The translations under genes were made by a program, and so were the position numbers. Under the pieces are notes generated by a model. It had not been told where the DNA came from and made no database searches. It worked only from the letters and a program-made list of their open reading frames with translations. From positions 3,208,024 to 3,240,023 of the forward strand of contig NC_019689.1 of assembly GCF_000317025.1 (NCBI RefSeq): a DNA stretch of 32,000 bases, in the 5' to 3' direction. The DNA comes from Pleurocapsa sp. PCC 7327 (lineage in GTDB: Bacteria; Cyanobacteriota; Cyanobacteriia; Cyanobacteriales; Microcystaceae). Of the stretch, positions 3,958 to 21,252 are shown piece after piece. Position 1 is the first letter of the stretch. Every line of letters begins with the position of its first letter.

Positions 3958-3976
3958 AGACTACAGGAGTACTGAG

Positions 3977-4288: not shown

Positions 4289-4744
4289 ATGAGTAATAGA
4301 TTCAAGCTTATATCTCGTCGAATTTTAGCTGAGAGGGGTTCTCCTTTGAGATTTGGGAATCATGTCGGTGTTTACGATGAAAGATACGAAGAGGTTTTAG
4401 ACCTTGGCTTCAATGAAGAAGACAATTCCATAATTATTAGAATTAGTTCGCTTGAAGAATTTAAACAAGGGGAACAAGTCAGATTTGAGTTAATAGAAGG
4501 AATGAGTTCTGAATCGGAAATTGAAAGTAGGTGGCACGCAATATCCTCAGCGTGGAAAAATAGCGAATTAAACCATCTTAAATTCAATCTTTATTCACTA
4601 AATTGTGAAACTCTGGCGTACTTCGTGCTGACAGGCAGAGAAAATACTCCACAAGGGGAAGAACTCAACGATTTAATCGGGGAGATGCTAGTTGGATCAT
4701 TAAGAGGACTGGCTAATATTCTGAGGAGCTGGTCTTCTGATTGA
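4289..4744 (+). CDS. LRAT / NlpC-P60 superfamily-like protein (papain-fold His/Cys)
   Basis: AAGGAG SD. NHVGVY (His about residue 25) and LNCETLAYFV (Cys about residue 106) resemble the H.G(I/V)Y and NCEHF motifs of LRAT/H-REV107-type enzymes, with similar spacing. This is a motif-level call only. Confidence 0.4.
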   Translation: MSNRFKLISRRILAERGSPLRFGNHVGVYDERYEEVLDLGFNEEDNSIIIRISSLEEFKQGEQVRFELIEGMSSESEIESRWHAISSAWKNSELNHLKFNLYSLNCETLAYFVLTGRENTPQGEELNDLIGEMLVGSLRGLANILRSWSSD

Positions 4745-4776
4745 TTAGTGATAAGCACATGGAGAGTTGAAATACT

Positions 4777-5625: not shown

Positions 5626-5641
5626 AATTGAGAGAAAAAAC

Positions 5642-7540
5642 ATGGATGTCAAACATATTCACTTTATTGGTTTCGACTTAGGACACGGGCAAACCGCACT
5701 TGCATCTATCCCAACCCACGCTTCTGCTCGCTTGGAAATCCTTGAGATTAATAATAAAAAGGTTCAGACCACAGCATTTAAGCGCAGCGACGATGGAAAA
5801 ATTGCTACAGGCGATCGAGCTTTTAATAGCGTTGTTGAGCCTCCGAATCAACTCTGTATTGCTTTCAAAAAAAGAGCAACTTCAGAGCCTGAGTACAGAA
5901 AAAATATGCAAGAGTATTATTACTCAACCCTTCAGCATCTCCAGGAAACTAATCAAGTGCCTCAATGGCATGACAGAGTTATTATCATCGGTTGCCCCTC
6001 CGAGTGGAAGCAAAAAGAACGCGAATCTTATCAAGAGCTTTTCAGTAATCCCCAATTTCCAAAGCCTGAAGTTGTTTCTGAGTCCCGTGCTGCTCTTCTC
6101 CATGTCATGGAACAGCAGGGAAAAACTCTCACCAAGGCGGATCTTGATGACGGGGCTGTGCTGGTCATTGATTGTGGCTCTTCTACCACGGATTTTACGA
6201 TTATTCATGGTTGGAATTCAGAAGAGCCATTAAAAGATTTTGGGGAAGACCTTGGTGCTTCTTACTTTGATGAAGAAATTTTCAAATACTCAGTAGAACA
6301 AAATGAAGATGCAGCTAATCTCATTGCTTTGATTCAAGCAAATGCCAATCTAGTGCCCATAATGAAATACCTCTGCCGACAAGCGAAAGAGAAATATTTT
6401 GATGCTCCAGATGATTTCGCTGAAGACAATGTTTCGGTTGGCTATCGACGGATTGGGAATACAATTTTCGAGCCATTGGTTAATGGCGTGCTGATGAATC
6501 AACTAATTCACCAACCGCTTGCTAATTCTCAATATTCATGGATTCAAACTTTCCAAAATCTCCTTCAAAGAGCTAAAAATGAGATTACCACGCGGGGATA
6601 TTCTCTAAGAGCCATACTGCTTACAGGTGGAGCTTCTCGTATGGGTTTTATTAGAGAAAGCATTAAGCAAATATTTCTTCAAGAAAACCCAGAAATCAAG
6701 TTTCAACAAGATCCAGAGCCAGAATTTTCAGTTGCTAGTGGATTAGCTCGATGGGGAAGGCGACGATATCTAATCGAATCTTTCCGTGAGAATACCAAAC
6801 GTGTCTTTGATGAAGAAATGCCTGAGCTAATTGAAAAACACAGCAGTGAGTTTCTAGATATCCTTATACCTAAGCTCATGGATACAGTTATTCCTCTATT
6901 TGTTATTCCGGGTCTATTTGATTGGAAGCAAGGAAAATTCGAGACGACTGAAGTTCTTCAGAAACAAATTAAGCAACAAACTAATCAGTGGTTGCAAACA
7001 TCTGAAGGAATAGAACTTATAGCTTCAGTCGGTAACGAGTGGTGGCATAAGGGGGTTGGCAAGGAGTTTTTATTTTTTATAGATCCTCTGTGTAGAAAGC
7101 ATGATGTACCTACAGGTTCAATGGATCTTAAAATTCCTTTTCGTTCAGAAAGTTTTTTCGATCCAGAATTTCCTTTCCCTATTCCACTAGAGCCACTAGT
7201 CAGATTCATTGGTTACATTATTTTTTGGGTAATTGTGTGGGCATTACCTTTAGGTGGTCCGATAATCGCCGCTTTTATCACTTTCTTTGCCAAGGATGAG
7301 GTTGACAAATTTATTGACCTGAGCATCAAGAAAATTAATATGCCAAAGTTGCTAAGAACCACTGTTAATGATACGGAGATTGAGAGTCTCGATCTTAAAC
7401 GGCACGAAATTGCGAACAAAACACGAGAAATGATTAGTAGTGATGATAAAGCTATGAAAAATATCACCTCGCAAATTCTCAAACACCTACGTACAGAAGT
7501 CGAAAAAAAGGCTGATGAAGCTAGTCGTTTTATTCAGTAA
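5642..7540 (+). CDS. Hsp70-like (ASKHA fold) ATPase with a non-chaperone C-terminal region and a membrane anchor
   Basis: Phosphate-1 FDLGHGQT, phosphate-2 VIDCGSSTTDFT and adenosine motif LLTGGASRMGFIRESI are present. There is no DnaK-type substrate-binding domain. A hydrophobic stretch FIGYIIFWVIVWALPLGGPIIAAFITFFA is encoded at about 7201-7290. Confidence 0.75.
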   Translation: MDVKHIHFIGFDLGHGQTALASIPTHASARLEILEINNKKVQTTAFKRSDDGKIATGDRAFNSVVEPPNQLCIAFKKRATSEPEYRKNMQEYYYSTLQHLQETNQVPQWHDRVIIIGCPSEWKQKERESYQELFSNPQFPKPEVVSESRAALLHVMEQQGKTLTKADLDDGAVLVIDCGSSTTDFTIIHGWNSEEPLKDFGEDLGASYFDEEIFKYSVEQNEDAANLIALIQANANLVPIMKYLCRQAKEKYFDAPDDFAEDNVSVGYRRIGNTIFEPLVNGVLMNQLIHQPLANSQYSWIQTFQNLLQRAKNEITTRGYSLRAILLTGGASRMGFIRESIKQIFLQENPEIKFQQDPEPEFSVASGLARWGRRRYLIESFRENTKRVFDEEMPELIEKHSSEFLDILIPKLMDTVIPLFVIPGLFDWKQGKFETTEVLQKQIKQQTNQWLQTSEGIELIASVGNEWWHKGVGKEFLFFIDPLCRKHDVPTGSMDLKIPFRSESFFDPEFPFPIPLEPLVRFIGYIIFWVIVWALPLGGPIIAAFITFFAKDEVDKFIDLSIKKINMPKLLRTTVNDTEIESLDLKRHEIANKTREMISSDDKAMKNITSQILKHLRTEVEKKADEASRFIQ

Positions 7541-7583
7541 AAAAGCAAAAATTAAGAACAGTAAAAATAATTAGGAGTCAGCC

Positions 7584-8717
7584 ATGTTTTTTAATTGGTT
7601 CGGAAATAAATCCAACAAATACGAAGATTACTACGACAAAATAATTGCATCTCCGATACCAGCATTAGAAAGAGAGATAGATAAATGTCTAGAAGACTTT
7701 ACGAACGAAAGACGAGAACTCAAAAAATTTCGTCAAGATATTGATGAGCAAATAAAACAGATAGAAGAAACTCAGCAAAGGCAGCGATATCTTTTTAACA
7801 GTCTCGGAGAACTATTATCTCAAAACAATATTCCAGTTACTCCTCAAAATATTAAGTGGGTGATGCAACAAATCCAAGCTCAACCGAATGAATATTCTTT
7901 TGTTGAGCAACAAATGATTTATTGGCGCAAACATCATCTTGAGTTAGCTATTAGACAAATAATCCAGAAACTCCCTTATCCTCCACCTGTGGTAGAACAA
8001 ACAGTAGCTTGGATGGTACAACAGGTAAACGCTCAACAAAATGAAATCCTCTTTATTCAACAGCAAATGCTTTATGAACGCCAAGAATATCTAGCTCACA
8101 TAATTAGATATGGCTTACAAAATATTGGTCGTCCTATCCCAGTGAATTTACCCAATATTAACGGATTGATACAGTATATTAATACTCACTTTCAATGTCA
8201 ATGCCAACCAGATGAAGGTTCTTTTTTTGGCGAACAAATGCAACTTTATTGGTCAGGACAACCCCTACCAATCGACCGCAAAAGTTACCTTAAAAGTTGT
8301 ACGCTTGAATTCTTCTACAAAAGAGTTGCTCATTATCACAAGAGGTCGGGAAGAAGTAGAAATCTATCCTATCAACAAGATTTAGCTGCTATTGATAGAC
8401 AGAAAGAAGTAAATGCCTATCACAAATATCTGGATGAAAAACGCCTAGTTGAACACCTAGAAAATACTCAAAGGAATTGGGAAGGATTAGGAAGTAGCTT
8501 AAGCCGGGATTTGGCTAACGAACAATTAGAATTGCGTAAAAGATGGGAAGCTGCAATGCTGGCAGCAGATTCTAGCGAACAATTTAGTCAAAATGCCGCA
8601 AAATTCCAGAAGTTAGCAGAAGAAGAAGAAAGGAAATTAAAGTATTATGAACAGCTAAATATTGACGTTTTTACTGAAGGTTTAGTTGATTTTATTCTCA
8701 CAGAACCATTAGATTAA
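7584..8717 (+). CDS. Coiled-coil protein with three internal repeats of about 48 aa (hypothetical)
   Basis: AGGAG SD. The repeats IPVTPQNIKWVMQQIQAQPNEYSFVEQQMIYW..., PPVVEQTVAWMVQQVNAQQNEILFIQQQMLYE... and IPVNLPNINGLIQYIN...FFGEQMQLYW are encoded at about 7830-8261. The flanks are Glu/Lys/Gln-rich and helical. Confidence 0.65.
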   Translation: MFFNWFGNKSNKYEDYYDKIIASPIPALEREIDKCLEDFTNERRELKKFRQDIDEQIKQIEETQQRQRYLFNSLGELLSQNNIPVTPQNIKWVMQQIQAQPNEYSFVEQQMIYWRKHHLELAIRQIIQKLPYPPPVVEQTVAWMVQQVNAQQNEILFIQQQMLYERQEYLAHIIRYGLQNIGRPIPVNLPNINGLIQYINTHFQCQCQPDEGSFFGEQMQLYWSGQPLPIDRKSYLKSCTLEFFYKRVAHYHKRSGRSRNLSYQQDLAAIDRQKEVNAYHKYLDEKRLVEHLENTQRNWEGLGSSLSRDLANEQLELRKRWEAAMLAADSSEQFSQNAAKFQKLAEEEERKLKYYEQLNIDVFTEGLVDFILTEPLD

Positions 8718-8732
8718 ATTGGGAGAAAAAGT

Positions 8733-8837
8733 ATGTCTGAGAAATTACCGACAGACAATAAAAGATTAGTTAGCAAATTAGTTCGATCTGCTAGCGAACT
8801 AAAATCGAAAGTATCGGCAGTAATACAGTCATCTTAA
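8733..8837 (+). CDS. 34-aa ORF, possibly the N-terminal fragment of a gene split by an in-frame stop
   Basis: GGGAG SD 7 nt upstream of the ATG at 8733. Translation MSEKLPTDNKRLVSKLVRSASELKSKVSAVIQSS, then TAA at 8835-8837. It is in the same reading frame as the ORF at 8850-9059. Confidence 0.35.
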   Translation: MSEKLPTDNKRLVSKLVRSASELKSKVSAVIQSS

Positions 8838-8849
8838 CAGGCAGAAATC

Positions 8850-9059
8850 TTGATTAATTTCATTGAACAACGCATTCATCAATTAGGTGATTCTCTCCGT
8901 GACGAAATGCACCAGATTTCTGAAAAGTATCGCTCTGAAATGGAGCAAGTATACCTGCAAAAACAGCAACAATTACGCCGTGAAGCCATGTATCAGTGGT
9001 TCATTACTTTGGCTTTACTAATAGCAATGATGGCGAAAAATAGTATCTTAAATTTTTAA
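8850..9059 (+). CDS. Small protein with a C-terminal TM helix (69 aa from a TTG start); the start is uncertain
   Basis: The only start available is TTG at 8850. A helical Gln/Glu-rich part is followed by WFITLALLIAMMA. It is in frame with the ORF at 8733-8837. Confidence 0.4.
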   Translation: MINFIEQRIHQLGDSLRDEMHQISEKYRSEMEQVYLQKQQQLRREAMYQWFITLALLIAMMAKNSILNF

Positions 9060-9080
9060 AGAAAAGCTAATTTTGTAGTC

Positions 9081-9875
9081 ATGAGTCAGCAAATACAAAG
9101 TCAGATTGAACAAATCACCCTTCAAAGGTATCGAGAACTTATCCAAGGGGGTGCCATCGTAGTTCAGGATTGGTACGGTACAGTACATCTACAACAAATT
9201 CTCAATCAGTTTGCTTCTGCAACTGGAGCAAGGGCACGTTTCTTCATAGTAGATGCCCCACTTCAAATTCTTGCTCAAGCAGCAGACGGATGGAATGCAG
9301 AAAGTTTAGCTGATGGAACCTTTATTTTTAATTACGATTTGCTAAATGCCAGTTGGTCAATAGCAGAAGGATACGCCTGCTGGCGCGCAGATCCATCTTT
9401 TAATCTGAATTATCATTTTTGGCTGATAGCTCAGGCTTTAAGGAGCGACTTTGATATTATGCCCCCTACCGATATATTTGGGCAACTCCAGTATCAAACA
9501 AGCCAGATCTTTCGAGACATGATTGCTTTTGTTGCGGCACACGAACTTGCCCACTTTATCAAACATGATTTGGCAAGGAAATTAGTAGAAGCATCGTTGA
9601 CGGGAAGTACTCCAATTTCCGCCATGTTTTTCAGTCGGGGACTCGAAATTGAAGCTGACCTTCTTGGTTTGAGTCTCCTTGTACAGGCAGGATATGACCC
9701 GCGTGGGGCATTATTATCTCTTGCTTTTATGGACTATTTGGACAAGTTTACGGGCAGACAGCCTCATCCTTTAGATCCCCATCCACCAGCTAGCGATCGC
9801 TTCACGATCGTCCAGCAATGGCTGACTAATAATGGATTTCCACTTCCACAGATTTTTGAGCGGATTCATATATAG
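9081..9875 (+). CDS. M48-like HExxH zinc metallopeptidase, soluble
   Basis: AAHELAHFIKHD (HExxH) is followed by GLEIEADLLGLSLLVQAGYDPRGAL. This is the E..AD...G....AGYDP pattern of M48 family peptidases. No TM segments. Confidence 0.7.
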   Translation: MSQQIQSQIEQITLQRYRELIQGGAIVVQDWYGTVHLQQILNQFASATGARARFFIVDAPLQILAQAADGWNAESLADGTFIFNYDLLNASWSIAEGYACWRADPSFNLNYHFWLIAQALRSDFDIMPPTDIFGQLQYQTSQIFRDMIAFVAAHELAHFIKHDLARKLVEASLTGSTPISAMFFSRGLEIEADLLGLSLLVQAGYDPRGALLSLAFMDYLDKFTGRQPHPLDPHPPASDRFTIVQQWLTNNGFPLPQIFERIHI

Positions 9876-9947
9876 CTAAATCCCTAGATAAATCTTTAGA
9901 AGTTTTTGCAACACGACCCTAGAACTCAGGTTTTCCTCTAACTTGGC

Positions 9948-10766
9948 TCACTGACTAATCTCAATGTCGCTAGATTCGCATAGATAGCTCAAGACTTCTT
10001 GGGCATTGCGAGTCAGAGTAGGAGACGGATTTTTCACAGAGTAGATTTCCTGCAAAGCATCCGACCAAAGACCTAGTTGGGCAAAATAGTTAGCGCGTTG
10101 TAAGGCGATTTCCTCGACAGTGGCTCCTGCTGTTTTCAGTTGCGTTTCCAGTTCCGCCAGTTTAGAGGCGATATCATTGCGCTCTTGGGACTCCATCACT
10201 TGAAAAGTAAAGCGCTGCCGATGGGAAGACGGAACGACCAATTCCCAATCGTAGATTTTACCAGGCTGCAACGCCTCTCCGGTATACTTAACACTTTGAA
10301 ATTTTGCCGTTTGAGATTGTGCCGTGACAGTCTGACTCCACAACAGTTCCTGCTCGCGATCGGGATTAAAAGGACTGTAAAGGCGAATTTTGATACTTGG
10401 TGCCGTTCCTTGCCAGAGAAACAGAGGGCGATCGCTCCAGATGATATTTTTTTCTCCTAGCAAACCGGGGGTAATCTCGCAGACATTCCCTCGTGAGGTT
10501 AAGGCAGGCTCGTTCCGTTTCGATTTCAATAATTCCCAAAGAACTGCCCAGACTGAGTTCTGCTCGCTTCCTCTAGTTTCTGTTGAAGTGTTGGCATTGC
10601 GAACGCGATCTCTAGTTTCTACTGAGGACTCAGAATTCGGCTGAGCAAAGGCACTGAGAATCAATCCAGAGTAGAAACAGGCGGTAGCTGTGGCAGCCAG
10701 TAGCAATATAGACGCGATTTTCTGGCTGGGTTTTCGAGTTGAGGTCAACGACTTGATATTAACCAT
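9948..10766 (-). CDS. Secreted DUF928-family protein
   Basis: Signal peptide ILLLAATATACFYSGLILSAFA|QP. The size, the C-terminal TPR-like helices and the position next to a CHAT gene fit cyanobacterial DUF928 proteins as I recall them. The start overlaps the upstream gene by 8 nt. Confidence 0.6.
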   Translation of the reverse strand: MVNIKSLTSTRKPSQKIASILLLAATATACFYSGLILSAFAQPNSESSVETRDRVRNANTSTETRGSEQNSVWAVLWELLKSKRNEPALTSRGNVCEITPGLLGEKNIIWSDRPLFLWQGTAPSIKIRLYSPFNPDREQELLWSQTVTAQSQTAKFQSVKYTGEALQPGKIYDWELVVPSSHRQRFTFQVMESQERNDIASKLAELETQLKTAGATVEEIALQRANYFAQLGLWSDALQEIYSVKNPSPTLTRNAQEVLSYLCESSDIEISQ

Positions 10767-13218
10767 GAGATGTCCTCCTCAAAGTCGGCAAAACATAAAT
10801 CCAAAAGGCTACTGACGGCAGAAACCAAGGCAGCAATACCGCAGCAGAGATATAAACCTGTAGTCCAATGAGAATATAAGCGGCTGTAGCGCCAGCTAGC
10901 CCAATTGCCCACTGCCATCGATCTCTGTACTGTTTCCTCAGCACCAGTGTGGCTCTTTTGCCCAGCAAAACTGCTATGCCGATCGCCCAAAGATCGGGAA
11001 TGGGAACGACTAATCGCTGTGCCAGCAAATGATGAATCATGTAAGCAAGGGCTTCAGATCCCGCGAATTTGTCTGGGTTGGTTGCCGCAGAAACCCGCCG
11101 TTTTCGCCAGTAAGCAACGGCTAGAGGCGCTGGGAAATTATCTGCCCCAGGTATGATTCCTGCTTCGTCATATCCTCCTGGGGCAACGATCGCGATTTGC
11201 TGCTCGAACCGATCGCCTGCTAAAGTATCGACATTATCATCGAGTAACTGCCAAGCGGCAATGCGATCGTAAACCAAGTCTGGGGGAATCGAAAAGTCAT
11301 TGATAGGTCGCAACCAAAGTTGACCAAAGTTTTCGGCAAAGCTGCTTATCGGGTGAAGCCGTGTTTGGCGTAAGAAGGCAACAGTATCGTTGGGTTTATC
11401 TCCCTCGTTGAGATAATTAAATACTTGGGTACGAAAATCGCTTCGGTTATTTAATCGCGGTTTCGGCAAATCAGAGGCAAAAGGGTCTTGATTGAGTGCG
11501 TAAACTACTGCCAGCAGATAGGCAAAGGGACAAGTCTGGTAACAATCTGTTTTTGCAGGTAAAAGTCTGACATATTGGGGCAAGGCATTAGTATAACCTT
11601 CGAGACTCCAATAACGTTTCGCAATGCCAGTTTCAGGCGCTCCCCCCACTTCTTTTCCATTATCCAACTGAGCTGCAAATACAATCCAAATGCCTTTCCG
11701 ATCGACCGCAGTGCGGATAGATTGTGAGAGTAGGCGATCGTTCCCAGGTCTGTCTAGAAGATAATCGATTCCTACAACTTTGGCATCTAAGGCTGAGAGT
11801 TTGTCAATCAAACTAGCTAGATAGCTGCGATCGATTGGATTGGGATCGGAGATCCCCGCTTTCTGAATTGACCGCTCGTCGATCTGAACCAACAGGACGG
11901 GGGGTAATGCCGCAGGTGGAATTTGTCCCGTGACATCGCGGTAGATTGCCTGGATTAAGACTCGCCCTTCTAATAAAAAGTCCTGTACGGGGGGAAATAA
12001 GCTCAGTAGTACTAACGATCCCAGAGCGATCGCTTCTCGGCGCGTGGGCAACCACTGTTTGAGCCATTGCCTAAAGCCAAAAGGTTCAATTTGAAATAGA
12101 TCGGCATCGGGATGACAAAATAAGGAAGGAATGAGGTAAGCAGAGGGATAGGTAAGGTTCTGTTGCTGCTTGAGATATTGACAGGCTGCCAGCAGGGCAT
12201 CGCACACGTCTTTGTATTGGGTTAAGAGTTGCAGAAACCGCACCAGAAAGGCTTGCGCGACTCGATTGTGGATTGGCTCCCGCATCACTGCCACTTGGCT
12301 TAGTCCCAAGTCAATCAGCGAGGCAGCCATACTGAGTCCCCGACAGGAGTTAAAGAGAGCAAATTGAAGTCCTCGCTCTTTGGCTAGCTGTAATTGTGGC
12401 GCAATTTCACTGACGAACATTGACGCGCCAGGGGCGATCGCTAACTCTCCTCCAGTAATGGCAGTTTCATTGCTATGTCCGGCGAAAAATAAAATATCCC
12501 AACCCCGTTCGTCTGCGATCGCCTCACAAATCTGCGCCTTGAGTTCGGATATGGCTTTTCCGGGTTGCCAGCCAACAAATTGAATCTCTGCCACGGAGAC
12601 TAACGATCGCAAAGCTTGCCGATCCCCTTGAAAGTTCAGTCCCGTGTCATCGCCTAAAATAGCTAAGACGCGAGTTCGACCGCGACGAAATCTCTGACGC
12701 TGGGGAGTCGTTTCTGCCCGGATGTTAACTGGAGTGCGAGCAAAGCGAATGGCGACCGTCCCGGTAAATTCTGTTCCAATTTCCCAAGCTTCCCAAGGAA
12801 ATCGCTCTAGCTCAATTGGGTTACAAGTGAGGAAAACATCGACGCAGCCGCCACCGAGCTTTGACTGGACGGGCACTTGCTCTGCTAGGCGCTTAGCGGC
12901 ACGGGCAATCTCAGTGCGAATTTCAAAGAGTTCTTGACAGCGAAGCCAGCGATGAAACTCAGACAGCAGCATGGCTTCCGCCTGCACCAGTTGGGCATGG
13001 CGCTCGACGGTCGCTCCGCTGCCAGAAGCTTCCACTCGCGATCGCAACGCCGTTTTATAAAAGCCCAGATAAGCTCGCTGCCACTCCTGATACAGTTTCG
13101 TCAGTGCTTCTGGATAGGACAAGGTAGCGCAAAGCTGTTGTCCTCTACCCCAAGACAGCTCAAAAAGACAAGCTCGATCGATTTGTTGGACTTTGAGCCG
13201 AAAAATAGAGCGAAGCAT
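10759..13218 (-). CDS. CHAT (caspase-like protease) domain fused to a CHASE2 sensor domain; multi-pass membrane protein
   Basis: The N-terminal about 390 aa carry the His/Cys dyad context ILFFAGHSNE (His about 248) and ALFNSCRG (Cys about 292). A TM segment AIALGSLVLLSLFPPV follows, then about 320 aa of CHASE2-like region (VLLVQIDERS...GIDYLLDRP...), then three C-terminal TM helices. Confidence 0.8.
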   Translation of the reverse strand: MLRSIFRLKVQQIDRACLFELSWGRGQQLCATLSYPEALTKLYQEWQRAYLGFYKTALRSRVEASGSGATVERHAQLVQAEAMLLSEFHRWLRCQELFEIRTEIARAAKRLAEQVPVQSKLGGGCVDVFLTCNPIELERFPWEAWEIGTEFTGTVAIRFARTPVNIRAETTPQRQRFRRGRTRVLAILGDDTGLNFQGDRQALRSLVSVAEIQFVGWQPGKAISELKAQICEAIADERGWDILFFAGHSNETAITGGELAIAPGASMFVSEIAPQLQLAKERGLQFALFNSCRGLSMAASLIDLGLSQVAVMREPIHNRVAQAFLVRFLQLLTQYKDVCDALLAACQYLKQQQNLTYPSAYLIPSLFCHPDADLFQIEPFGFRQWLKQWLPTRREAIALGSLVLLSLFPPVQDFLLEGRVLIQAIYRDVTGQIPPAALPPVLLVQIDERSIQKAGISDPNPIDRSYLASLIDKLSALDAKVVGIDYLLDRPGNDRLLSQSIRTAVDRKGIWIVFAAQLDNGKEVGGAPETGIAKRYWSLEGYTNALPQYVRLLPAKTDCYQTCPFAYLLAVVYALNQDPFASDLPKPRLNNRSDFRTQVFNYLNEGDKPNDTVAFLRQTRLHPISSFAENFGQLWLRPINDFSIPPDLVYDRIAAWQLLDDNVDTLAGDRFEQQIAIVAPGGYDEAGIIPGADNFPAPLAVAYWRKRRVSAATNPDKFAGSEALAYMIHHLLAQRLVVPIPDLWAIGIAVLLGKRATLVLRKQYRDRWQWAIGLAGATAAYILIGLQVYISAAVLLPWFLPSVAFWIYVLPTLRRTSHG

Positions 13219-14570
13219 TATTGCGATTCTTCACGAATAAAGGCAAAGGACGGCAATGTAAGGGTTTCTCCATCCATCAAGACAAGGGTCACTAGAAATT
13301 GCTCGTTCAATGCGCCGACGACACGAGTATAGAGATAGGTATCCCCTGGGTTAGGCTCTACCTCGACTAAAACATTCGTTAGCTCGCTGACTCGTAATTT
13401 GAGTCCTTGGGGCAGCTCGTTCCCAGACCGCGTTCCTAAGATTAGCAGCAACGTCCACTCCGATTGAATGGGAATAGACCAGGTGACGGCGTACAATCGC
13501 AAGAGATTCTCAGCTAAAGTCAAGTCTCGGTAAGCGCCACGCGCCTGGGTAGGGATTTCCATGCCCCTACTTCTTAACTGGGCGATTATCGCCCCGAACT
13601 CTTCAGCAGGCGATTCAACGACAGTATCTCTCAGGGAACGTAGGGGTACTGTAGCCAAATCCGGGGGCGGAAGTACCATCCAAGATAGATTCTGGGCGAA
13701 CTCGTCTAGCTCGTCCTGTAACCACAGCCATACATTCACGACTTGTTGGGTTAGGTTTTGTAAGATTTGTGAAAGTTGACCGATCGGTTGTGCTTCTGTT
13801 TGCAGGCAGTATAGCCAATCTAGTAGCTCTGGACTGCTCAGCAGTGCCGCTCCCTGCTCCCAAGTCAATACCTTCCACAAGGGGCGATTTGGAGATTGTA
13901 GCTGTGGGATTAGAGGTTCTAGTTCAGCTTGTATCCCCGATAGAGACGCTAAGCGATTAGTTGGTATCGCAGGCAGAGGGATGGCAGTCGGTTCCAAACA
14001 GCGCAGGTAGAGCAACAAGCGATCGGGATCGCGATCGAACCATGCGTATGGCAGCTCGTAAGTCCAGTCTGGCTCGGCTTGTAAGTTAGCAGATTGCAGA
14101 CGGTCTACGAGTTGGTCGTGGCGGATGAAGCTCTTAATTGTGGCTTGTTCCTGCTCTTCTCGAACCTCTACCAGCACATAAAAATGGGCGGCATATTCTG
14201 GCAAGTCAATGGCTGCTCTTGGGAAAGCGATCGCTTCATCGATTAGGGTTCCGGTTGCCAGCAAGCAAAGTTTAAACTCGCCCACCTCTAGATTACAATC
14301 CGCAGCGATCGCGTTGGCATACTGCGGCTGCAATACAGTACAGTTTTCCGAGTTGACCCGAAGCTCTGCTGCTCGCTCGCTCAGCCACTGCTCGAAACCA
14401 AATAACGCTAAAGCATTGAGATAGATTTGCCATTGCCGGAATTCATTCACAATTTGGCTGCTGAGTTGTACGGCTCGGTCAATCTTGTCCGATTCGAGGA
14501 AAATTGTCTCTACGGGCAAGGATTCAAAGTCGAGCAGAAGGTCAGTCGGATCGTTAGGGAAGTTAGTCAT
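13218..14570 (-). CDS. DUF1822-family protein (acidic, soluble, function unknown)
   Basis: 450 aa. The N-terminal ...EFRQWQIYLNALALFGFEQWLSE... pattern is what I recall for cyanobacterial DUF1822. The start overlaps the upstream stop (ATGA), and its own stop overlaps the next start (TAATG). Confidence 0.6.
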   Translation of the reverse strand: MTNFPNDPTDLLLDFESLPVETIFLESDKIDRAVQLSSQIVNEFRQWQIYLNALALFGFEQWLSERAAELRVNSENCTVLQPQYANAIAADCNLEVGEFKLCLLATGTLIDEAIAFPRAAIDLPEYAAHFYVLVEVREEQEQATIKSFIRHDQLVDRLQSANLQAEPDWTYELPYAWFDRDPDRLLLYLRCLEPTAIPLPAIPTNRLASLSGIQAELEPLIPQLQSPNRPLWKVLTWEQGAALLSSPELLDWLYCLQTEAQPIGQLSQILQNLTQQVVNVWLWLQDELDEFAQNLSWMVLPPPDLATVPLRSLRDTVVESPAEEFGAIIAQLRSRGMEIPTQARGAYRDLTLAENLLRLYAVTWSIPIQSEWTLLLILGTRSGNELPQGLKLRVSELTNVLVEVEPNPGDTYLYTRVVGALNEQFLVTLVLMDGETLTLPSFAFIREESQ

Positions 14571-15985
14571 GGCGAGTTTCTCCTGGCTTCGAGGTGGCGA
14601 CAGAGACGCTGGGCAAAAAGGCTGCTGGAAGAGCGATTTTTAGCCATGCTGGCTTCTGTTTCTGCTTCTTCGATTGTGGCAGCAATCTGTTCGTCAAGAG
14701 CAGCCTCAACTTTTTGAAGTCGGTCTGGATGAGTATAGGTCATGGCTGTTTCTAAGGTGCGATCGCGCAAATCCTTTAACATTTGCTGCCGGATATCAGC
14801 CCGAAATTCCTTGAGCTTGAGCAGACGACTCACTTGATACTGTGCCTGCAAACCGACAACAGAAGCAATTTCACCCATAGACTGTCCCTGACAGTGAAAT
14901 AATTCGAGGGCAGTCAGAAATTGCCGCGCTATCTGAGATCCTTTGTCCTGTAAACAACTGAACCGAGCCTGAGTTACCTGCTCTATAGCCCGATCCAAGC
15001 AGCTTATGAATTGCTGGCGGTAAAATGTCAAAAATTCTGCTTGCTCGTTTTCTTCTTCTGAGTCACTGGTAGGGGCAGATGCCTGAAGGCGCTCGGCGAT
15101 TAACTGAATTTTAGGGCGATCGAGGGATTCTTGAGCAGTAGACCCTCCCCTGGCGTAAATGCGATACTGACGCAGGCGCTCTGCTAGGTCTTGCAAGCGA
15201 GACATAGTATTTTCTGGCAAAAGAGTAAGGTTGGCTGTTTGGCGATTCAGATGAGCGATTTGTTGTAGTTGCTCCCTTGAGGGGGGCTGGCATTTCCCCT
15301 TGACCCCAGAGGAGCGCTGCTTGAGGCGATCGCGCCGATAGATAGCGTGATAGCTCTCTAGCAGAAGGCAAGCATGCTGAATTTGAGCTGGCGCAAGATT
15401 GTGAAATCCCGCCAAAATTCGCTGTAATTGCTTGGGAGCCGTGTCATTGAGGATTGCCCAGTCGCTGACCAGATAAACGCCGCGTTCTAACAAGAAGGCA
15501 TTGAGTTCTCGATGATGTTTTACGAGTCTCGTCGTCCAAGTGGACAAGCTCGCGCGTTCCGGGTCAAAGGTTTGCAAAATCTCAATAGCCAGAGATTTGT
15601 ATGCTCTTGGAGAGCTTGACGATCTCAAATCATCCAAAATGTCATCAAGGACAAAAGGAAACAGATCGTGACGAGTAAAGCCATGTTCGCTGCCAAATTG
15701 AACTTCAAGCTGAATGCAAACTTGCTCGATCTGACCGGAGATAAAGCAGCGCAAACAACGCTCAGCATTGAGAGGATTGGTGTCTTCCCCCAAGGGAGCT
15801 TTGGCAGCATCGCGGCGTAAAGCCAGCAGTTGGCGTTGAATGATTGAATCCGCCACGTCTACTTGAGTTGCCAATTCGGGAAATTGCTGCTGGAAAAACG
15901 CTTTAGCTGAGGCAATTTCTTCAACTTTGCGCCTTCCGGTAGCATCAAGTCTCGCGAGTCTCCAGTATCTCGATGCAGCACCCAC
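14567..15985 (-). CDS. Atypical extended sigma-70-family-like protein (region 2-like and region 4 HTH-like segments)
   Basis: 472 aa with a GTG start; there is no in-frame ATG for more than 250 codons. LSTWTTRLVKHHRELNAFLL resembles sigma region 2, and GQSMGEIASVVGLQAQYQVSRLLKLKEFRADIRQQM resembles a region 4 HTH. About 170 aa lie between the two segments. Motif-level call. Confidence 0.5.
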   Translation of the reverse strand: MGAASRYWRLARLDATGRRKVEEIASAKAFFQQQFPELATQVDVADSIIQRQLLALRRDAAKAPLGEDTNPLNAERCLRCFISGQIEQVCIQLEVQFGSEHGFTRHDLFPFVLDDILDDLRSSSSPRAYKSLAIEILQTFDPERASLSTWTTRLVKHHRELNAFLLERGVYLVSDWAILNDTAPKQLQRILAGFHNLAPAQIQHACLLLESYHAIYRRDRLKQRSSGVKGKCQPPSREQLQQIAHLNRQTANLTLLPENTMSRLQDLAERLRQYRIYARGGSTAQESLDRPKIQLIAERLQASAPTSDSEEENEQAEFLTFYRQQFISCLDRAIEQVTQARFSCLQDKGSQIARQFLTALELFHCQGQSMGEIASVVGLQAQYQVSRLLKLKEFRADIRQQMLKDLRDRTLETAMTYTHPDRLQKVEAALDEQIAATIEEAETEASMAKNRSSSSLFAQRLCRHLEARRNSP

Positions 15986-16320
15986 AGTTATTAGACCTAG
16001 CTCGGACTAATTACATAATGAAACCTCCTGCGGCTAAGCGATCTAAGCTCTTAACTTTTGTTTGTAGTCGTTTTCTTGACCGAGGTCTTTTCTGTCAGCC
16101 TTACCTATCTCTAAACGCGCCGAGCTTATGCAGCTATTAATCTGCATAGAGCAACAGAGCAAGTAAGATGGCATCGCATTTATGCTTATCCTCTCTGAAT
16201 TGACAGTTCTACAGCAAGCGCATAGAGCTTTTTTGCATATCCTTTACTCGTTTGGAGAGAAAGTCAAATAGCCGCTAACCAAATAGGACCTATTTTGCCA
16301 CAGCCGCCAATCTAGGACTA

Positions 16321-16341
16321 ATTGTGAATTGTGAATTGCGA
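16321..16341. repeat. Short heptamer tandem repeat (attgtga attgtga attgcga)
   Basis: Three tandem 7-mers in the intergenic region between dcm and the sigma-like operon. Confidence 0.6.
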
Positions 16342-16386
16342 ACCGACGCGGACTCTCACGAACTGGAGGAGCATCGGCGAATGGTA

Positions 16387-17643
16387 TCAGTAGTATCGTG
16401 TCGCTTGCGATAGTTTGAGCTGAAGTAGTCTTTCATCGCCCAACTTTTGCCGCAGAGTTGGCTTAAAGGGTGACGCATTAAGGGTGCGAATAATCTCTGC
16501 CGCCACAGCTTTGGCTAATAGTGGCGGTACGGAATTGCCAACCTGTCGAAATCCATGCCATTTGGTCGCATGAAATCTAAACCAGTCGGGATAGGAATGC
16601 AGCCGTGCTGCTTCTCTGACCGTAATACATCTTGGCGTAAATGGATGAATTGGTCTGGCAGAGGTAAAAGCCCCATTATACTTATTGGTTCCGGCTCTTA
16701 GCGTGTTACAAATCCCATCGGGATGCAGCTTGTGGAAACGACTGATCTTTTCGGTTTCGCCGTGACGAGTTTCTTGAAAGCGTTTAATCGTTTCAGCAGT
16801 GTGTCTGGTTCGTATGCTTGAGGAGAGAATTTGCAAATTATATTCGCGATCGTATGAATAATCATCTTCCAACTGTTTGATGCCGCGAAGGATGAGAGCA
16901 TAATGACTAGAACCCTTGCATTCAGCGATAACCCAGTCTTTTCTTAGTAATTCTGGATAATGTTCTACTTCAGGCAAATCTCCGATGGCATCCCACACTG
17001 TCGGGGCAGTGGGTAGATTGGATAATTTTTTATATTTGAAGTTATTTAACCGAACTGGTTGAGTGATTGGCTGAGGGTATTTGGGTAATTCAAAATCCTC
17101 TCTTGCTCCCAGGAGAAATAATCTTTCGCGAGCTTGTGGAACTCCGTAACAAGCGGCATTGAGAACTTGATAATTTTTTTGTACTTGGTAACCTTGAAGC
17201 TGAAATTCTTGTATCAAAGTTTCGAGGATTTTTTGTTGTTTTCCAACAGCCAATCCCCGTACATTTTCCATGACGAAAAATTTGGGTTTTAACTCCAAAA
17301 CTACTCTCAGAAACTGAAAGACAAGGGAGTTGCGCGGATCGTCAACTACTCGTTTGCCAATTAGTGAAAATCCTTGACAGGGAGGTCCTCCAAAAACTAC
17401 ATCGATATCGCGATCGCCAATTGCCGATTGATTTCTAATTTCTGCTCCCGTTATTTTAGTTATATCTCGACATAAAACAGTCCAGAAAGGAAAATTATAT
17501 TCATGAGTCGCGCAGTGAATCGGATCGATTTCTACAGCAGCAAGCACGTCAAATCCTGCCTGTTCAAAACCGAGAGTCATTCCCCCCGCACCTGCGAATA
17601 AGTCTACTGCAATAGGTCGCTCGCGATCGCTTTTCTTGACCAT
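16387..17643 (-). CDS. dcm: DNA (cytosine-5)-methyltransferase
   Basis: Motif I DLFAGAGGMTLGF, motif IV GGPPCQGFS, motif VI VMENVRGL, motif VIII QARERLFLLG, motif IX ITVREAARLHSYPDWF and motif X QVGNSVPP are all present. Confidence 0.92.
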   Translation of the reverse strand: MVKKSDRERPIAVDLFAGAGGMTLGFEQAGFDVLAAVEIDPIHCATHEYNFPFWTVLCRDITKITGAEIRNQSAIGDRDIDVVFGGPPCQGFSLIGKRVVDDPRNSLVFQFLRVVLELKPKFFVMENVRGLAVGKQQKILETLIQEFQLQGYQVQKNYQVLNAACYGVPQARERLFLLGAREDFELPKYPQPITQPVRLNNFKYKKLSNLPTAPTVWDAIGDLPEVEHYPELLRKDWVIAECKGSSHYALILRGIKQLEDDYSYDREYNLQILSSSIRTRHTAETIKRFQETRHGETEKISRFHKLHPDGICNTLRAGTNKYNGAFTSARPIHPFTPRCITVREAARLHSYPDWFRFHATKWHGFRQVGNSVPPLLAKAVAAEIIRTLNASPFKPTLRQKLGDERLLQLKLSQATRYY

Positions 17644-17664
17644 CCCGATTACTTAAGCACGCTC

Positions 17665-18459
17665 TTAAAATTCAACGATAACGGGAGCGTGATCGCTAGG
17701 CTGAGGAAGCTTTCTCGGTTCTACGTCAATCCTACAGCTAATCGCTCTTTCATAGAGTTGGGGGGTTAAATAATGATGGTCGATTCGCCATCCTCGGTTG
17801 CGTTGAAATCCTCCTTGGCGATAGTCCCACCAACTAAAATGTCCGCCTTCGGCAGTAAATTTGCGAAAAGCATCCTTTAAACCGATTGCTAGGACTTTCT
17901 GTAGCGCTTGGCGTTCGCGGGGAGAAGCCATGATATGATTTTCTTTTCCTTTTGGATCGTAAATATCTCTATCTTCTAAAGCAATATTGAAGTCTCCACA
18001 GACGCAAAGTTCCTCCGAGCTTTTTTCGCGCAGCGTTTTTAAATAGTCTTTTAGCACTTTAAGCCAACGCAGTTTATAGTCATATTTCTCGCTATCGACA
18101 GCGGCACCATTTGGCACGTATAAATTAACAATCCGAATCTCACCAATAACGCCAGTAATCACTCGCTTTTGCGAGTCAAAATCCAAATCTTCAGCTAGCA
18201 AATCGCCTAAAACAGGAGCAAAACCCGTACTTATTTGCGTTAATGGCTGTAGGCTAAAAATCGCTACCCCATTGTAAGATTTTTGCCCGGAGATATAGAG
18301 ATGATATCCAAGTTTTTCAAAACAATCTCTAGGAAAATCTGCATCAGTTACCTTTGTTTCTTGTAAACAAAGAACATCGACAGGATTGTTTTGTAGCCAA
18401 TCTACTACGTGCTGCTGGCGAGTGCGAATTGAATTAACATTCCAAGTGGCAATTTTCAT
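17665..18459 (-). CDS. xth: Exodeoxyribonuclease III (AP endonuclease)
   Basis: MKIATWNVNSIRTR...LCLQETK, NLYVPNG, CGDFNIA, WRIDH and SDHAPV are canonical ExoIII/EEP motifs. 264 aa. Confidence 0.92.
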   Translation of the reverse strand: MKIATWNVNSIRTRQQHVVDWLQNNPVDVLCLQETKVTDADFPRDCFEKLGYHLYISGQKSYNGVAIFSLQPLTQISTGFAPVLGDLLAEDLDFDSQKRVITGVIGEIRIVNLYVPNGAAVDSEKYDYKLRWLKVLKDYLKTLREKSSEELCVCGDFNIALEDRDIYDPKGKENHIMASPRERQALQKVLAIGLKDAFRKFTAEGGHFSWWDYRQGGFQRNRGWRIDHHYLTPQLYERAISCRIDVEPRKLPQPSDHAPVIVEF

Positions 18460-18598
18460 GGGTTATGGCTGCTAATTCGAGTAGAAATAGAAATCTTAGC
18501 ATTTTGATGCCTAAATTGAGCAAAATGAGGAGATTTATTTTAACAATTTAAGTATCCTACAAATTAAGAATAAAATCGTTCAAATCTATCGCTTAAAA

Positions 18599-19870
18599 TT
18601 GGAAGAAAGAACAAGCGAAACTTTCTTGACTAATCCTCTTAACATTATTGTCATCGGCGGCGGGGCTGCCGGATTTTTCGGGGCAATTACTTGTGCCGCT
18701 ACCCATCCCCATACCCAAGTAACGTTACTAGAAGCAGGGCACACTCCTTTAGCGAAGGTGCGAATTTCTGGTGGGGGAAGGTGTAATGTCACCCACCACT
18801 GTTTCGATCCCGCTCAATTAGTACGATTCTATCCTAGAGGAGAGAAAGAACTGCGAGGCGCTTTTAGTCGTTTTCAACCCAAAGATACCATCGCTTGGTT
18901 TGAGTCTCGCGGCGTTCGCTTAAAAACCGAGGCGGATGGCAGGATGTTTCCCGTGACAGATAATTCGGAAACAATTGTCAATTGCCTGATGGAAACGGCA
19001 AGACAAACGGGAGTCAAATTGCGCACCAAGGCAATGGTCAAATCTGTGAAGAAAAAATCGGATTCTCCCGCACAAAAAGGATTTGAGGTGGAGTTAAAAA
19101 CGGGAGAAATTTTAAAGTGCGATCGCTTGTTAATTGCAACGGGAAACAATCCGTTGGGCTATCGTTTTGCCAAAGAGTTAGGACACGCGATCGAACCTCC
19201 AGTTCCTTCTCTTTTTACATTCAATATTGACGATCCTCGCCTGCAAAATTTAGCTGGAGTTAGCGTTGAGAATGCTTGCGTGTATCTCGCGAATACCGGG
19301 AAAAATCGACTCGAACAAACGGGAGCATTATTAATTACCCATTGGGGACTTAGCGGTCCTGCGATTTTAAAATTATCTGCTTGGGGAGCGAGAGTTTTAT
19401 ACGAACATCGCTATCAAATGTCTTTGATAATTAATTGGGTTCCTACCCATAACCTAGAAACTTTACGAAAATACTTATTAGAACTTAAATCGAACAATCC
19501 CAAGCGTAAAATTTCCAGTTATTCTCCTTTACCGATTCCAAAACGCCTTTGGCAGAGATTCCTGACCTTTGTTGGCACCGATAGGCAAATGACTTGGGCA
19601 GAATTATCTAAGGAAGCTTTGAATAAATTAGTTCGAGAACTGGCACAAGGACAATATCAAATTCAAGGGAAAGGCGTTTTTAAAGAAGAATTCGTTACCT
19701 GCGGCGGCGTAAAGTTAAAGGAGGTCGATTTTAAAACGATGGAAAGCAAAATTTGTCCCGGACTTTATTTTGCAGGGGAGGTTCTCGACATCGATGGAAT
19801 TACGGGCGGATTTAATTTTCAAAGTGCTTGGACGACTGCTTGGCTAGCAGGTAATGCGATGGGGAAATAA
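18599..19870 (+). CDS. HI0933/BaiN-type NAD(P)/FAD-dependent oxidoreductase
   Basis: IIVIGGGAAGFFGAI dinucleotide-binding motif, GGGRCNVTH, WGLSGPAILKLS and FAGEVLDIDGITGGFNFQSAW are typical of this family. The start is TTG (18599 or 18626); no ATG is available. Confidence 0.85.
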   Translation: MEERTSETFLTNPLNIIVIGGGAAGFFGAITCAATHPHTQVTLLEAGHTPLAKVRISGGGRCNVTHHCFDPAQLVRFYPRGEKELRGAFSRFQPKDTIAWFESRGVRLKTEADGRMFPVTDNSETIVNCLMETARQTGVKLRTKAMVKSVKKKSDSPAQKGFEVELKTGEILKCDRLLIATGNNPLGYRFAKELGHAIEPPVPSLFTFNIDDPRLQNLAGVSVENACVYLANTGKNRLEQTGALLITHWGLSGPAILKLSAWGARVLYEHRYQMSLIINWVPTHNLETLRKYLLELKSNNPKRKISSYSPLPIPKRLWQRFLTFVGTDRQMTWAELSKEALNKLVRELAQGQYQIQGKGVFKEEFVTCGGVKLKEVDFKTMESKICPGLYFAGEVLDIDGITGGFNFQSAWTTAWLAGNAMGK

Positions 19871-19964
19871 TCTAGCGATCGCAGCATAAAATTGTTACTT
19901 ATCGCTCACAGTTGGGAATGCTTAGAACAAAGGTAATTATTTTCTTAGCTTCTCAGTAACAATA

Positions 19965-21224: not shown

Positions 21225-21252
21225 GCATACTTGCCAACGCTCAAAAAAGTTT

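Follow-up and report, generated by a model that had tools for sequence, protein, structure and literature searches.

A conserved cyanobacterial operon in which a membrane-bound caspase-like protease probably acts on a very divergent sigma-like protein

A four-gene operon of the cyanobacterium Pleurocapsa sp. PCC 7327 joins genes for a sigma-like protein (gene 1), a DUF1822 protein (gene 2), a caspase-like receptor-protease with CHAT and CHASE2 domains (gene 3) and a DUF928 protein (gene 4). We analysed it within a 32,000-nt stretch of NC_019689.1, called the window below, and all coordinates are given in window numbering. The operon is real and widely conserved in cyanobacteria, and through it a membrane-bound caspase-like protease sensing the cell exterior probably switches on a very divergent sigma factor. 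Gene content, gene order, coupling, domain architecture, conservation of the catalytic dyad, the remote sigma likeness of gene 1 and the enrichment of a promoter-like motif were established directly.

The four open reading frames (ORFs) lie on the minus strand at 14567-15985 (gene 1, 472 aa, GTG start), 13218-14570 (gene 2, 450 aa), 10759-13218 (gene 3, 819 aa) and 9948-10766 (gene 4, 272 aa). Read from the sequence, the junction of genes 1 and 2 is ATGA at 14567-14570, that of genes 2 and 3 is TAATG at 13216-13220, and that of genes 3 and 4 is an 8-nt overlap, ATGGTTAA, at 10759-10766. Gene 4 is translationally coupled to gene 3. ORFs and junction sequences confirmed the overlapping minus-strand operon proposed in a first-pass annotation of this stretch. 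The families which that annotation had assigned to genes 2 to 4 were recovered in Pfam profile searches, which matched gene 2 to DUF1822 (PF08852; E=1.7e-56, 192.3 bits against a gathering score of 25), gene 3 to CHAT (PF12770) and to CHASE2 (PF05226; E=1.1e-15, 58.3 bits against a cut-off of 26.3), and gene 4 to DUF928 (PF06051; E=3.7e-7, 30.5 bits against a gathering score of 26). Hydropathy and charge agreed with its description of an acidic soluble gene 2 product, of the transmembrane (TM)/CHASE2 topology of gene 3 and of a signal peptide on gene 4. A generic sigma-70 promoter and terminator scan of 9700-16500 found sites no more frequently than in shuffles, and therefore gives no operon boundaries.

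To place the operon in its family, one genome per species was scanned for relatives of gene 1. This gave 359 loci, 80 of which were fetched for neighbourhood counts, with members called by iterated hidden Markov models (HMMs) built from the window proteins. Gene 1 was followed by DUF1822 in 74/80 loci, the exceptions lying mostly at contig ends. A protein combining the gene 3 N-terminal domain, CHAT and CHASE2 followed in 46 of the 80 (45 of the 65 with enough downstream DNA), and DUF928 came after CHAT-CHASE2 in 37 of the 39 loci that extend far enough to hold it. These counts bear out the co-occurrence beyond chance that had been claimed for the four families. Gene overlaps likewise exceed chance across the related loci: the junction of genes 3 and 4 overlapped in 33 of 37 loci, by 8 nt in 20 of them, and that of genes 1 and 2 in 34 of 71, as ATGA in 23.

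In a neighbour-joining tree the window falls in a subfamily that has the tight four-gene operon and is distinct from a paralogous one; several genomes carry two or three copies. Homologues were also present on 19 large, partly conjugative, cyanobacterial plasmids. Among these is the conjugative plasmid pNPUN01 of Nostoc punctiforme, where the RefSeq gene order reads hypothetical, DUF1822, CHAT, IS4, CHASE2 and DUF928. At this plasmid locus (100004-117404; L193) the cassette adjoins an NHLP bacteriocin export system, and an extra CHAT gene and an IS4 transposase stand between DUF1822 and the CHASE2 gene. No homologue was found in 50,697 phage records, PADLOC-DB 2.0 contained no family for any of the four proteins at E≤0.1, and NCBIfam gave no match for any of them.

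Gene 3 supplies the receptor-protease. Its product begins with a constant, EACC2-like domain (aa 1-180, nt 12679-13218), followed by the CHAT/caspase domain (aa 186-353, nt 12160-12663), a first TM helix assigned by hydropathy (TM1; aa 397-415, nt 11974-12030), the periplasmic CHASE2 domain assigned by Pfam (aa 430-751, nt 10966-11931) and three C-terminal TM helices, again from hydropathy (aa ~733-812, nt 10783-11022). The hydrophobic segments at 397-415 and ~733-812 flank CHASE2, with basic residues (RREA, RRTSHG) on the predicted cytoplasmic sides. Hydropathy and charge distribution together support a predicted topology of cytoplasmic N-terminus, TM1, periplasmic CHASE2 and three TM helices. 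The His/Cys dyad, held to be intact in the first-pass annotation, comprises His248 (GHSNE, nt 12475-12477) and Cys292 (NSCRG, nt 12343-12345). In 46/46 gene 3 orthologues neither residue varies, nor does its context (GHS.E or FNSC.G), and the protease is therefore under selection to be active. In these orthologues the caspase domain is the best-conserved part of the protein, CHAT is present in precomputed Pfam annotation, and all 46 combine CHAT with a match to the N-domain HMM (aa 1-180). A sequence search of the PDB returned no match to gene 3.

This architecture places the operon in a class already delineated in silico. In the parts of their article that we consulted, Kaur, Iyer, Burroughs and Aravind (eLife 2021, PMC8195603) described proteins in which EACC2, an N-terminal alpha+beta domain, is joined to a caspase domain and to a variable C-terminus, for example TM+CHASE2, with an 'ECF sigma factor' (extracytoplasmic function) and DUF1822 as neighbours. 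The window operon is a member of this EACC2-caspase class, the identity of EACC2 being judged from the published description and not from the authors' alignment. The four-gene arrangement had been presented in the first-pass annotation as undescribed; as far as the consulted parts of that article go, its neighbourhood was already on record. The same parts propose stimulus-induced activation of the protease, with the sigma factor as the last step (PMC8195603). The window operon resembles the EACC2-caspase systems described there in its gene set and in its logic of a protease leading to sigma-dependent transcription. It differs in that DUF928, which the searchable main text of the article does not mention, is here tightly coupled. 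The article labels DUF1822 as a tetratricopeptide repeat (TPR) protein, whereas the model obtained here is alpha/beta with a beta-sandwich, and it labels gene 1 as an ECF sigma, whereas gene 1, at 472 aa, matches none of the sigma HMMs and can be aligned with SigA and RpoS over their whole length. The passages of it examined report no promoter motif and no candidate cleavage sites.

The DUF928 product of gene 4 carries a signal peptide or anchor (aa 1-41, nt 10644-10766, minus strand; AFA|QP, with a hydrophobic segment at 19-37). The most distant DUF928 matches that could be retrieved still adjoin CHAT-CHASE2. This tight coupling of DUF928 to CHASE2 is a new observation, and it suggests that DUF928 may be the periplasmic partner of CHASE2, as ligand or co-receptor.

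At the output end of the cassette, gene 1 likely encodes a deeply divergent sigma-70-like protein, and it is not a recognisable ECF sigma. Its GTG start is supported by homologues, which begin MGAASRYW or MSAASKYW. A word index gave more than 1000 matches of 50-70% identity over the full length, all without names, from cyanobacterial genomes and metagenomes; family members, where named or fetched, were cyanobacterial or probable mis-bins. The sigma likeness was seen only in profile-profile and fold comparisons. For the former, we ran hhalign against profiles of E. coli RpoE, FecI, FliA, RpoH, RpoS and RpoD plus one cyanobacterial ECF sigma, with reversed or column-shuffled profiles as controls; this sigma set is of limited power because 1.2 Mb of related loci held one canonical ECF sigma. 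That sigma, an RpoE relative, is encoded at 699-1259 (+) of a Coleofasciculaceae locus (L029), ~1.9 kb upstream of a gene 1 homologue. Gene 1 scored 35.6 against the ECF profile (E=2.7e-4; control maximum 19.9) and 29.2 against the all-sigma profile (control maximum 14.5). The confident part of the alignment placed aa 355-397 of gene 1 (nt 14795-14923; QGQSMGEIASVVGLQAQYQVSRLL...) onto the region 4.2 helix-turn-helix (HTH), RpoE 142-183. Upstream of it, a region 2-like segment spans aa 83-165 (nt 15491-15739). A colinear alignment with RpoS put IEQVCIQLEVQFGSEHGFTRHDL onto region 2.1 and ILQTFDPERASLSTWTTRLVKH onto regions 2.2-2.3, and FDPERASLSTWTTRLVKH maps onto region 2.2-2.3, colinear with the region 4.2 match.

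Fold comparison pointed the same way. The AlphaFold2 model of gene 1 is nearly all-helical, with a mean pLDDT (predicted local distance difference test) of 79. In a Foldseek search of the PDB its nine best matches were all SigA chains of RNA polymerase (RNAP) holoenzymes, and WhiG ranked 12th. The E-values were weak (0.06-1.5; 0.06-1.4 for the nine primary sigma factors); the alignments to SigA span ~400 columns, and global TM-scores (template modelling) were low, as expected for multi-domain proteins with a flexible domain arrangement. A PDB sequence match to GH5 ('DWHILND') was set aside as a chance coincidence. RNAP-core binding and promoter-specific initiation by the gene 1 protein are putative.

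Two further features of the gene 1 family bear on its regulation. In the model, aa 284-311 (nt 15053-15136) form a disordered acidic linker, adjoined by a conserved motif, E-S-[LIM]-D-x-P, at aa 286-291. Members of the family are also fused, C-terminally, to CHAT+TRADD-N (P0258), AAA_35+TRADD-N (P0183) and AAA_35 (P0121) modules, some of these fusions being possible gene-calling artefacts; the family is therefore tied to caspase signalling and to the TRADD-N/STAND network. Separately, six cysteines (C77, C80, C90, C232, C365 and C462) are invariant in 30 gene 1 homologues and include a CxxC-x9-C cluster where the region 2-like helix begins. A metal- or redox-sensing site in the sigma-like protein may be built from them.

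Gene 2 is 100% identical to an annotated DUF1822 protein of Pleurocapsa sp. PCC 7327. It lacks any hydrophobic segment and has an isoelectric point of 4.3, as fits a soluble acidic protein. Its AlphaFold2 model (pLDDT 76) comprises an alpha/beta N-domain, a helical middle, a disordered loop with pLDDT<50 (aa 276-319, nt 13614-13745) and a C-terminal Ig-like beta-sandwich. The literature label of DUF1822 as a TPR protein was rejected, as the model contains no TPR solenoid and TPR proteins are separate neighbour genes. Foldseek matched DUF1822 to generic beta-sandwiches alone (E ~0.02) and to no anti-sigma structure; no PDB sequence relative was found at E≤10; and of the traits of anti-sigma factors, hydropathy revealed no TM segment and Pfam no family besides DUF1822. 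Within the otherwise variable loop, [LMFI]-R-S is present in 32/32 aligned homologues, and in the window it reads PLRS (Arg311-Ser312, nt 13635-13643). Natural fusions of gene 1 with DUF1822 occur (P0210, P0200), although some fusions may be gene-calling artefacts. We propose DUF1822 as a partner of gene 1, or as its inhibitor, and as a candidate substrate of the protease. Candidate cleavage sites are the DUF1822 [LMFI]-R-S at Arg311-Ser312 and, in gene 1, E-S-[LIM]-[DE]-x-P (D289) before the disordered linker.

Upstream of gene 1 homologues of both subfamilies we found a bipartite, promoter-like motif, CTGCATAAG-N11-(C/T)AGAnnTA(nnTA). Related loci totalling 1.25 Mb and the window were searched for CTGCATAAG with at most one mismatch, N11 and [CT]AGA-NN-TA, with 20 shuffles as background. 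The 1.25 Mb held 53 copies, against 0-1 per shuffle (~0.25 expected). Thirty-seven of the 53 share the strand of a gene 1 homologue and stand no more than 500 nt upstream of it, which corresponds to 37 of the 80 loci, and the motif also stands 35 nt upstream of an annotated gene 1 homologue on an N. punctiforme plasmid. In the window, the copy belonging to the operon (16106-16133, minus strand) reads CTGCATAAG-N11-TAGAGATA, then GGTA, and lies 148 nt upstream of the gene 1 GTG. Other copies precede DUF1822 where there is an intergenic gap, TPR proteins with signal peptides beside the operon, and S8 subtilases directly upstream of gene 1.

The leader between motif and gene 1 has an element of its own. 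A Shine-Dalgarno (SD)-like GGAGGTGAAAC(AATTGA) block is conserved ~74-77 nt after the motif start in other loci. Its window counterpart, at 16011-16028 on the minus strand, consists of the SD-like GGAGGTTTCATT, with a strong GGAGGT, followed by an ATG-TAA start-stop mini-ORF. We rejected the block as the SD of a conserved leader peptide, since downstream frames are not conserved and several loci have no start codon; Rfam gave no match in the gene 1 leader.

Two more copies of the motif form a divergent pair near the left end of the window. One, at 414-441 (+), reads CTGCATAGG-N11-CAGATATA and precedes small secreted or membrane ORFs at 524-802, 984-1235, 1330-1620 and 1696-2709; the other, at 177-204 (-), reads CTGCATAAG-N11-CAGACATA and lies before an ORF with its start at 141 that continues past the window edge. 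The ORFs at 524-802, 984-1235, 1330-1620 and 1696-2709 are candidate regulon members. In Hydrococcus rivularis NIES-593, where a 6-kb insertion found in the window is absent, the region of the motif pair lies ~1.6 kb from the operon end. The small ORFs after the pair (524-2709) have hydrophobic or lipoprotein-like N-termini, and one of them encodes a 337-aa TM protein without a Pfam match.

The motif is not exclusive to gene 1 operons: other genes follow 16 of the copies in related loci and ~18 cyanobacterial copies from metagenomes. When metagenomes were scanned for exact matches, 62 distinct ones were obtained, 31 of them inside long ORFs and attributable to chance. The ~18 cyanobacterial copies stand before genes for secreted TPR proteins, Ser/Thr kinases, an ABC ATPase, RTX- or protease-like products and secreted proteins of small size. 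The motif is thus a genuine intergenic signal of cyanobacteria, and the set of genes associated with it is largely extracytoplasmic. Its enrichment, together with the general habit of alternative sigma factors to regulate their own genes, makes it a candidate cognate, autoregulatory promoter that gene 1 would read. The bipartite motif and its candidate regulon are new observations.

These elements suggest an outside-in cassette, in which CHASE2 and DUF928 would sense, the CHAT protease would cut DUF1822 or the sigma-like protein, and the sigma-like protein would transcribe from motif promoters. Taken as a whole, we give this model an even chance of being right. A periplasmic signal would be sensed by the CHASE2 domain of gene 3 with the co-translated periplasmic DUF928. 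The signal would activate the cytoplasmic CHAT caspase-fold cysteine protease of this inner-membrane protein, next to the EACC2-like constant adaptor domain. DUF1822, the acidic soluble partner, would hold the gene 1 sigma-like protein inactive, and the protease would cut an exposed loop, most likely at the hydrophobic-Arg|Ser of DUF1822 and alternatively at the gene 1 E-S-L-D motif beside the acidic linker. The freed sigma-like protein would then direct RNAP to CTGCATAAG-N11-YAGAnnTA promoters; its own operon would be among the targets, as would neighbouring genes that encode secreted TPR proteins, subtilases and small secreted proteins. The interactions, the cleavage and its substrate, RNAP binding and the reading of the motif by gene 1 are steps that we infer. 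More tentatively, the cassette may be a bacterial 'death-receptor-like' pathway, in which the CHASE2 caspase, with DUF928 as co-receptor, cleaves DUF1822 at Arg|Ser and frees a new divergent sigma class with its own promoter and a secretome regulon; this form of the proposal we regard as rather doubtful.

Several results weigh against the outside-in cassette. No Pfam or NCBIfam family matched gene 1 at E≤0.1, the Sigma70_r2 and Sigma70_r4/r4_2 profiles included, no sigma factor was returned by a PDB sequence-profile search at E≤10, and no PDB match in Foldseek reached E<1e-3. The hhalign score against group 1-3 sigmas alone was marginal (22.6; control maximum 21.1). An exhaustive search of 1.84 billion representatives with the gene 1 HMM recovered 678 clusters only, and the family is therefore a closed one, which at the HMM level stays apart from ordinary sigma factors. 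What survives of the region 2 and region 4 likeness put forward in the first-pass annotation is the remote signal of hhalign and Foldseek, to which Pfam, NCBIfam and PDB sequence profiles are blind. The Pfam match of gene 3 to CHAT is marginal as well (E=1.3e-5, 25.3 bits against a cut-off of 24). Kinship of DUF1822 with anti-sigma factors, or with Csx30, the sigma inhibitor of type III-E CRISPR systems, was unsupported by PDB sequence search and Foldseek, and the anti-sigma-like tether that DUF1822 had been taken for has no fold or sequence relative among them. The missing anti-sigma domain makes it less probable that DUF1822 belongs to an anti-sigma family, not that it acts as an inhibitor.

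Gene neighbourhoods and the motif add to these points. The cassette is not the obligate four-gene unit that had been supposed: in about 20 of the 80 loci gene 1 and DUF1822 occur without CHAT-CHASE2 although plenty of DNA lies downstream, the next genes then being unrelated ones or ones for TPR or pentapeptide-repeat proteins, and one locus (L088) has CHAT-CHASE2 and DUF928 without gene 1 or DUF1822, adjoining a hybrid histidine kinase. The sigma pair therefore does not strictly need the CHAT-CHASE2 protease. Since sigma-like+DUF1822 and CHAT-CHASE2+DUF928 each also occur alone, the cassette consists of two modules that are usually, not always, joined. The junction between them, that of genes 2 and 3, is the least coupled, overlapping in just 12 of 45 loci, with 1.8-6.5 kb of other genes intervening in four. 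As for the motif, ~18 intergenic metagenome copies lie on contigs bearing HIP1 (highly iterated palindrome 1) sites, and gene 1 was found within 3.5 kb of none of them; it is by enrichment, and not by exclusivity, that the motif is linked to gene 1. The literature yielded no experimental work on DUF1822, DUF928, gene 1 or CHAT-CHASE2 proteins.

Some of the same observations invite a reading in which gene 1 is a helical HTH transcription regulator or scaffold and not a sigma factor, and in which gene 1 and DUF1822 form an independent unit often parked beside CHAT-CHASE2 and DUF928. Standard sigma profiles do not match gene 1, the HTH region alone aligns with confidence, and the two modules occur separately. 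We nevertheless consider this reading unlikely. Against it, the Foldseek alignments to SigA run over ~400 columns, the nine best matches are all sigma factors, and the region 2.2-2.3 signature aligns colinearly. CHAT-CHASE2 follows in 45 of the 65 loci that extend far enough, at junctions that often overlap or are short, and P0258 joins CHAT, TRADD-N and gene 1 in one polypeptide.

A second possibility concerns the substrate. The main substrate of gene 3 could be gene 3 itself, CHASE2-triggered self-cleavage freeing an EACC2(+caspase) fragment that acts on the sigma/DUF1822 pair or on other targets, with DUF1822 as an adaptor. Autoproteolysis is the in-silico proposal made for the class in the consulted parts of Kaur et al. 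2021 (PMC8195603). The constant N-domain is always fused to the caspase domain, and invariant residues (Y357, P358, S359, H369, P370 and P391) occur in the stretch that links the caspase domain to TM1 (aa 354-396). However, no specific conserved cleavage-type motif was identified in gene 3, and the invariant DUF1822 Arg-Ser and the gene 1-DUF1822 fusions point to the output pair as the site of regulation. We judge self-cleavage as the main event to be improbable; it and the outside-in cassette are not mutually exclusive.

In a third reading the operon serves conflict or abortive infection: the caspase-like protease would be a death effector or its activator, triggered by envelope damage or phage, and the sigma-like protein would run a defence programme. 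In the parts consulted, Kaur et al. (PMC8195603) place EACC2-caspase/TRADD-N systems in a conflict and apoptosis network. The fusions of gene 1 to TRADD-N, CHAT and AAA_35 (STAND-like) modules in some proteins, the multiple copies in several genomes, the copies on 19 plasmids and the fact that the experimentally studied CHAT-sigma systems are all CRISPR-linked immune systems are in line with this. Against it stand the lack of a PADLOC match for the four proteins and of a phage homologue, the lack of a toxin-like effector in the operon, a sensor that faces the periplasm and not the cytoplasm, and a predicted regulon of secreted TPR proteins, proteases and small secreted proteins.

The surroundings of the operon also speak against a conflict role. 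The window from 9938 to 26491, which comprises the operon, a C5 DNA methyltransferase, Xth and the genes onwards, is collinear with H. rivularis NIES-593 at ~95% nucleotide identity, and the synteny stops exactly at the end of gene 4. The flanking genes are of housekeeping type (xth, metK, a P-type ATPase), with a methyltransferase and peptidases besides. The operon carries nine HIP1 (GCGATCGC) sites, in keeping with the at least nine counted in the first-pass annotation, at a density of 1.49/kb against 0.97/kb for the whole window. A foreign origin suggested by its GC content (0.50 against 0.43) was rejected: values of 0.51-0.54 are reached by other housekeeping genes of the window, and the sister species shows synteny at this locus, so that the higher GC is not evidence of such an origin. 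The operon looks native to its genome, as had been claimed, and a conflict function appears to us as improbable as the other two alternatives.

Beside the operon, a low-GC (0.36-0.42) segment of ~6 kb at ~3957-9938 abuts the gene 4 stop; the collinear H. rivularis locus lacks it. Its products are an M28 peptidase (4777-5625), a protein of 632 aa that is weakly Hsp70/MreB-like (5642-7540), one of 377 aa without a Pfam match (7584-8717), an M48-like HExxH peptidase (9081-9875) and that of a 69-aa ORF. The segment may be an accessory island. On the other side, immediately upstream of the operon, are a C5 cytosine DNA methyltransferase (16387-17643, minus strand) and then an exonuclease III (Xth) homologue (17665-18459, minus strand); no restriction enzyme was recognised beside the methyltransferase, which may be an orphan methylase. 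Farther along, a 419-aa ORF at 19965-21224 (+) has a weak EcsC-family match and lies within a stretch (~20045-21191) missing from the collinear H. rivularis locus. Near the other end of the window are two overlapping small ORFs on the minus strand, 2956-3384 and 3377-3631. The product of the former, 142 aa long, starts MNRVFCLDTSVL and has an 84-aa partner upstream; judged from its translation only, it resembles a PIN/VapC toxin, and we take the pair to be probably a toxin-antitoxin system of VapBC type.

The outside-in cassette can be set beside systems in which proteolysis is known to reach a sigma factor. In the type III-E CRISPR Craspase, Cas7-11 acts with Csx29, a TPR-CHAT protease that cleaves Csx30, an inhibitor of the ECF-like CASP-sigma, as shown experimentally (Strecker et al. 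2022, PMC10028731). The protease-gated release proposed in the first-pass annotation is therefore reasonable but not unprecedented, given that CHAT cleavage of a sigma inhibitor has been demonstrated there (PMC10028731). In Craspase a CHAT protease lifts the inhibition of a dedicated sigma factor from the same locus by cutting a soluble multi-domain inhibitor in an exposed region, and the window operon would work in a like manner. The Craspase trigger is a cytoplasmic target RNA, recognised via a CRISPR effector; here a membrane-spanning CHASE2 receptor and its periplasmic partner would perceive the signal, and the genes that flank the operon in the window include no cas genes. CASP-sigma is an obvious ECF sigma (HHpred 100%), which gene 1 is not, and DUF1822, unlike Csx30, has no PDB likeness by sequence or fold beyond generic beta-sandwiches.

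Two further systems follow related lines. In type III-B systems, SAVED-CHAT activates PCaspase, which cleaves a predicted sigma factor, PCc-sigma, and in the CalpL-CalpT-CalpS system the Lon-type CalpL cleaves the anti-sigma-like CalpT (bioRxiv 10.1101/2023.06.23.546230 and, for CalpL, also work cited there). As proposed here, signal-activated proteases act on co-encoded sigma or anti-sigma proteins, and caspase-fold enzymes are used for bacterial signalling. Both systems differ in being cyclic oligoadenylate-activated, cytoplasmic and immune-linked, and their partners PCi, PCk and CalpT are different. There are thus experimental precedents for protease-released sigma factors, two of which use CHAT proteases (Csx29 and SAVED-CHAT).

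In the classical RpoE-RseA-DegS-RseP pathway the anti-sigma factor crosses the membrane once and is cleaved by site-1/site-2 proteases of serine and zinc type. The cassette proposed here would resemble it in leading from an envelope signal through proteolysis and sigma release to an autoregulated extracytoplasmic regulon. It would differ in that the membrane protein is itself a caspase-fold protease and the candidate inhibitor is soluble. CHASE2 receptors, said to have been described by Zhulin et al. in 2003, share with gene 3 a periplasmic CHASE2 domain that lies between TM helices and is linked to an output domain in the cytoplasm. In gene 3 this output is a protease N-terminal to the sensor, whereas in the other receptors it is a kinase, cyclase or GGDEF domain at the C-terminal side. 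A DUF928 partner of CHASE2 was not found in the published descriptions of these receptors. In the light of such systems the cassette is less surprising than first thought, because its neighbourhood (2021) and the protease-sigma logic (2022) were already published. New here are the quantified neighbourhood with its two-module structure, the DUF928-CHASE2 coupling, a corrected fold for DUF1822, the candidate cleavage sites and the promoter-like motif with its candidate regulon.

Caspase-fold proteases are abundant in cyanobacteria, and to our knowledge almost none has a known substrate or trigger; nor do we know of a ligand for any CHASE2 domain. The cassette offers a compact and defined case, with a periplasm-facing sensor, a protease with an invariant dyad, two candidate substrates with conserved sites and a candidate read-out promoter. 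If the outside-in model holds, the CHAT-to-sigma logic, known to date from CRISPR-associated immunity only, would extend to ordinary transmembrane signalling, functions would be gained for three DUF families and one unnamed family, and sigma factors would acquire a new, highly divergent branch with its own type of promoter. Should the 'death-receptor-like' form prove true, bacteria would have their first case, CRISPR immunity aside, of a caspase-type receptor that signals to transcription.

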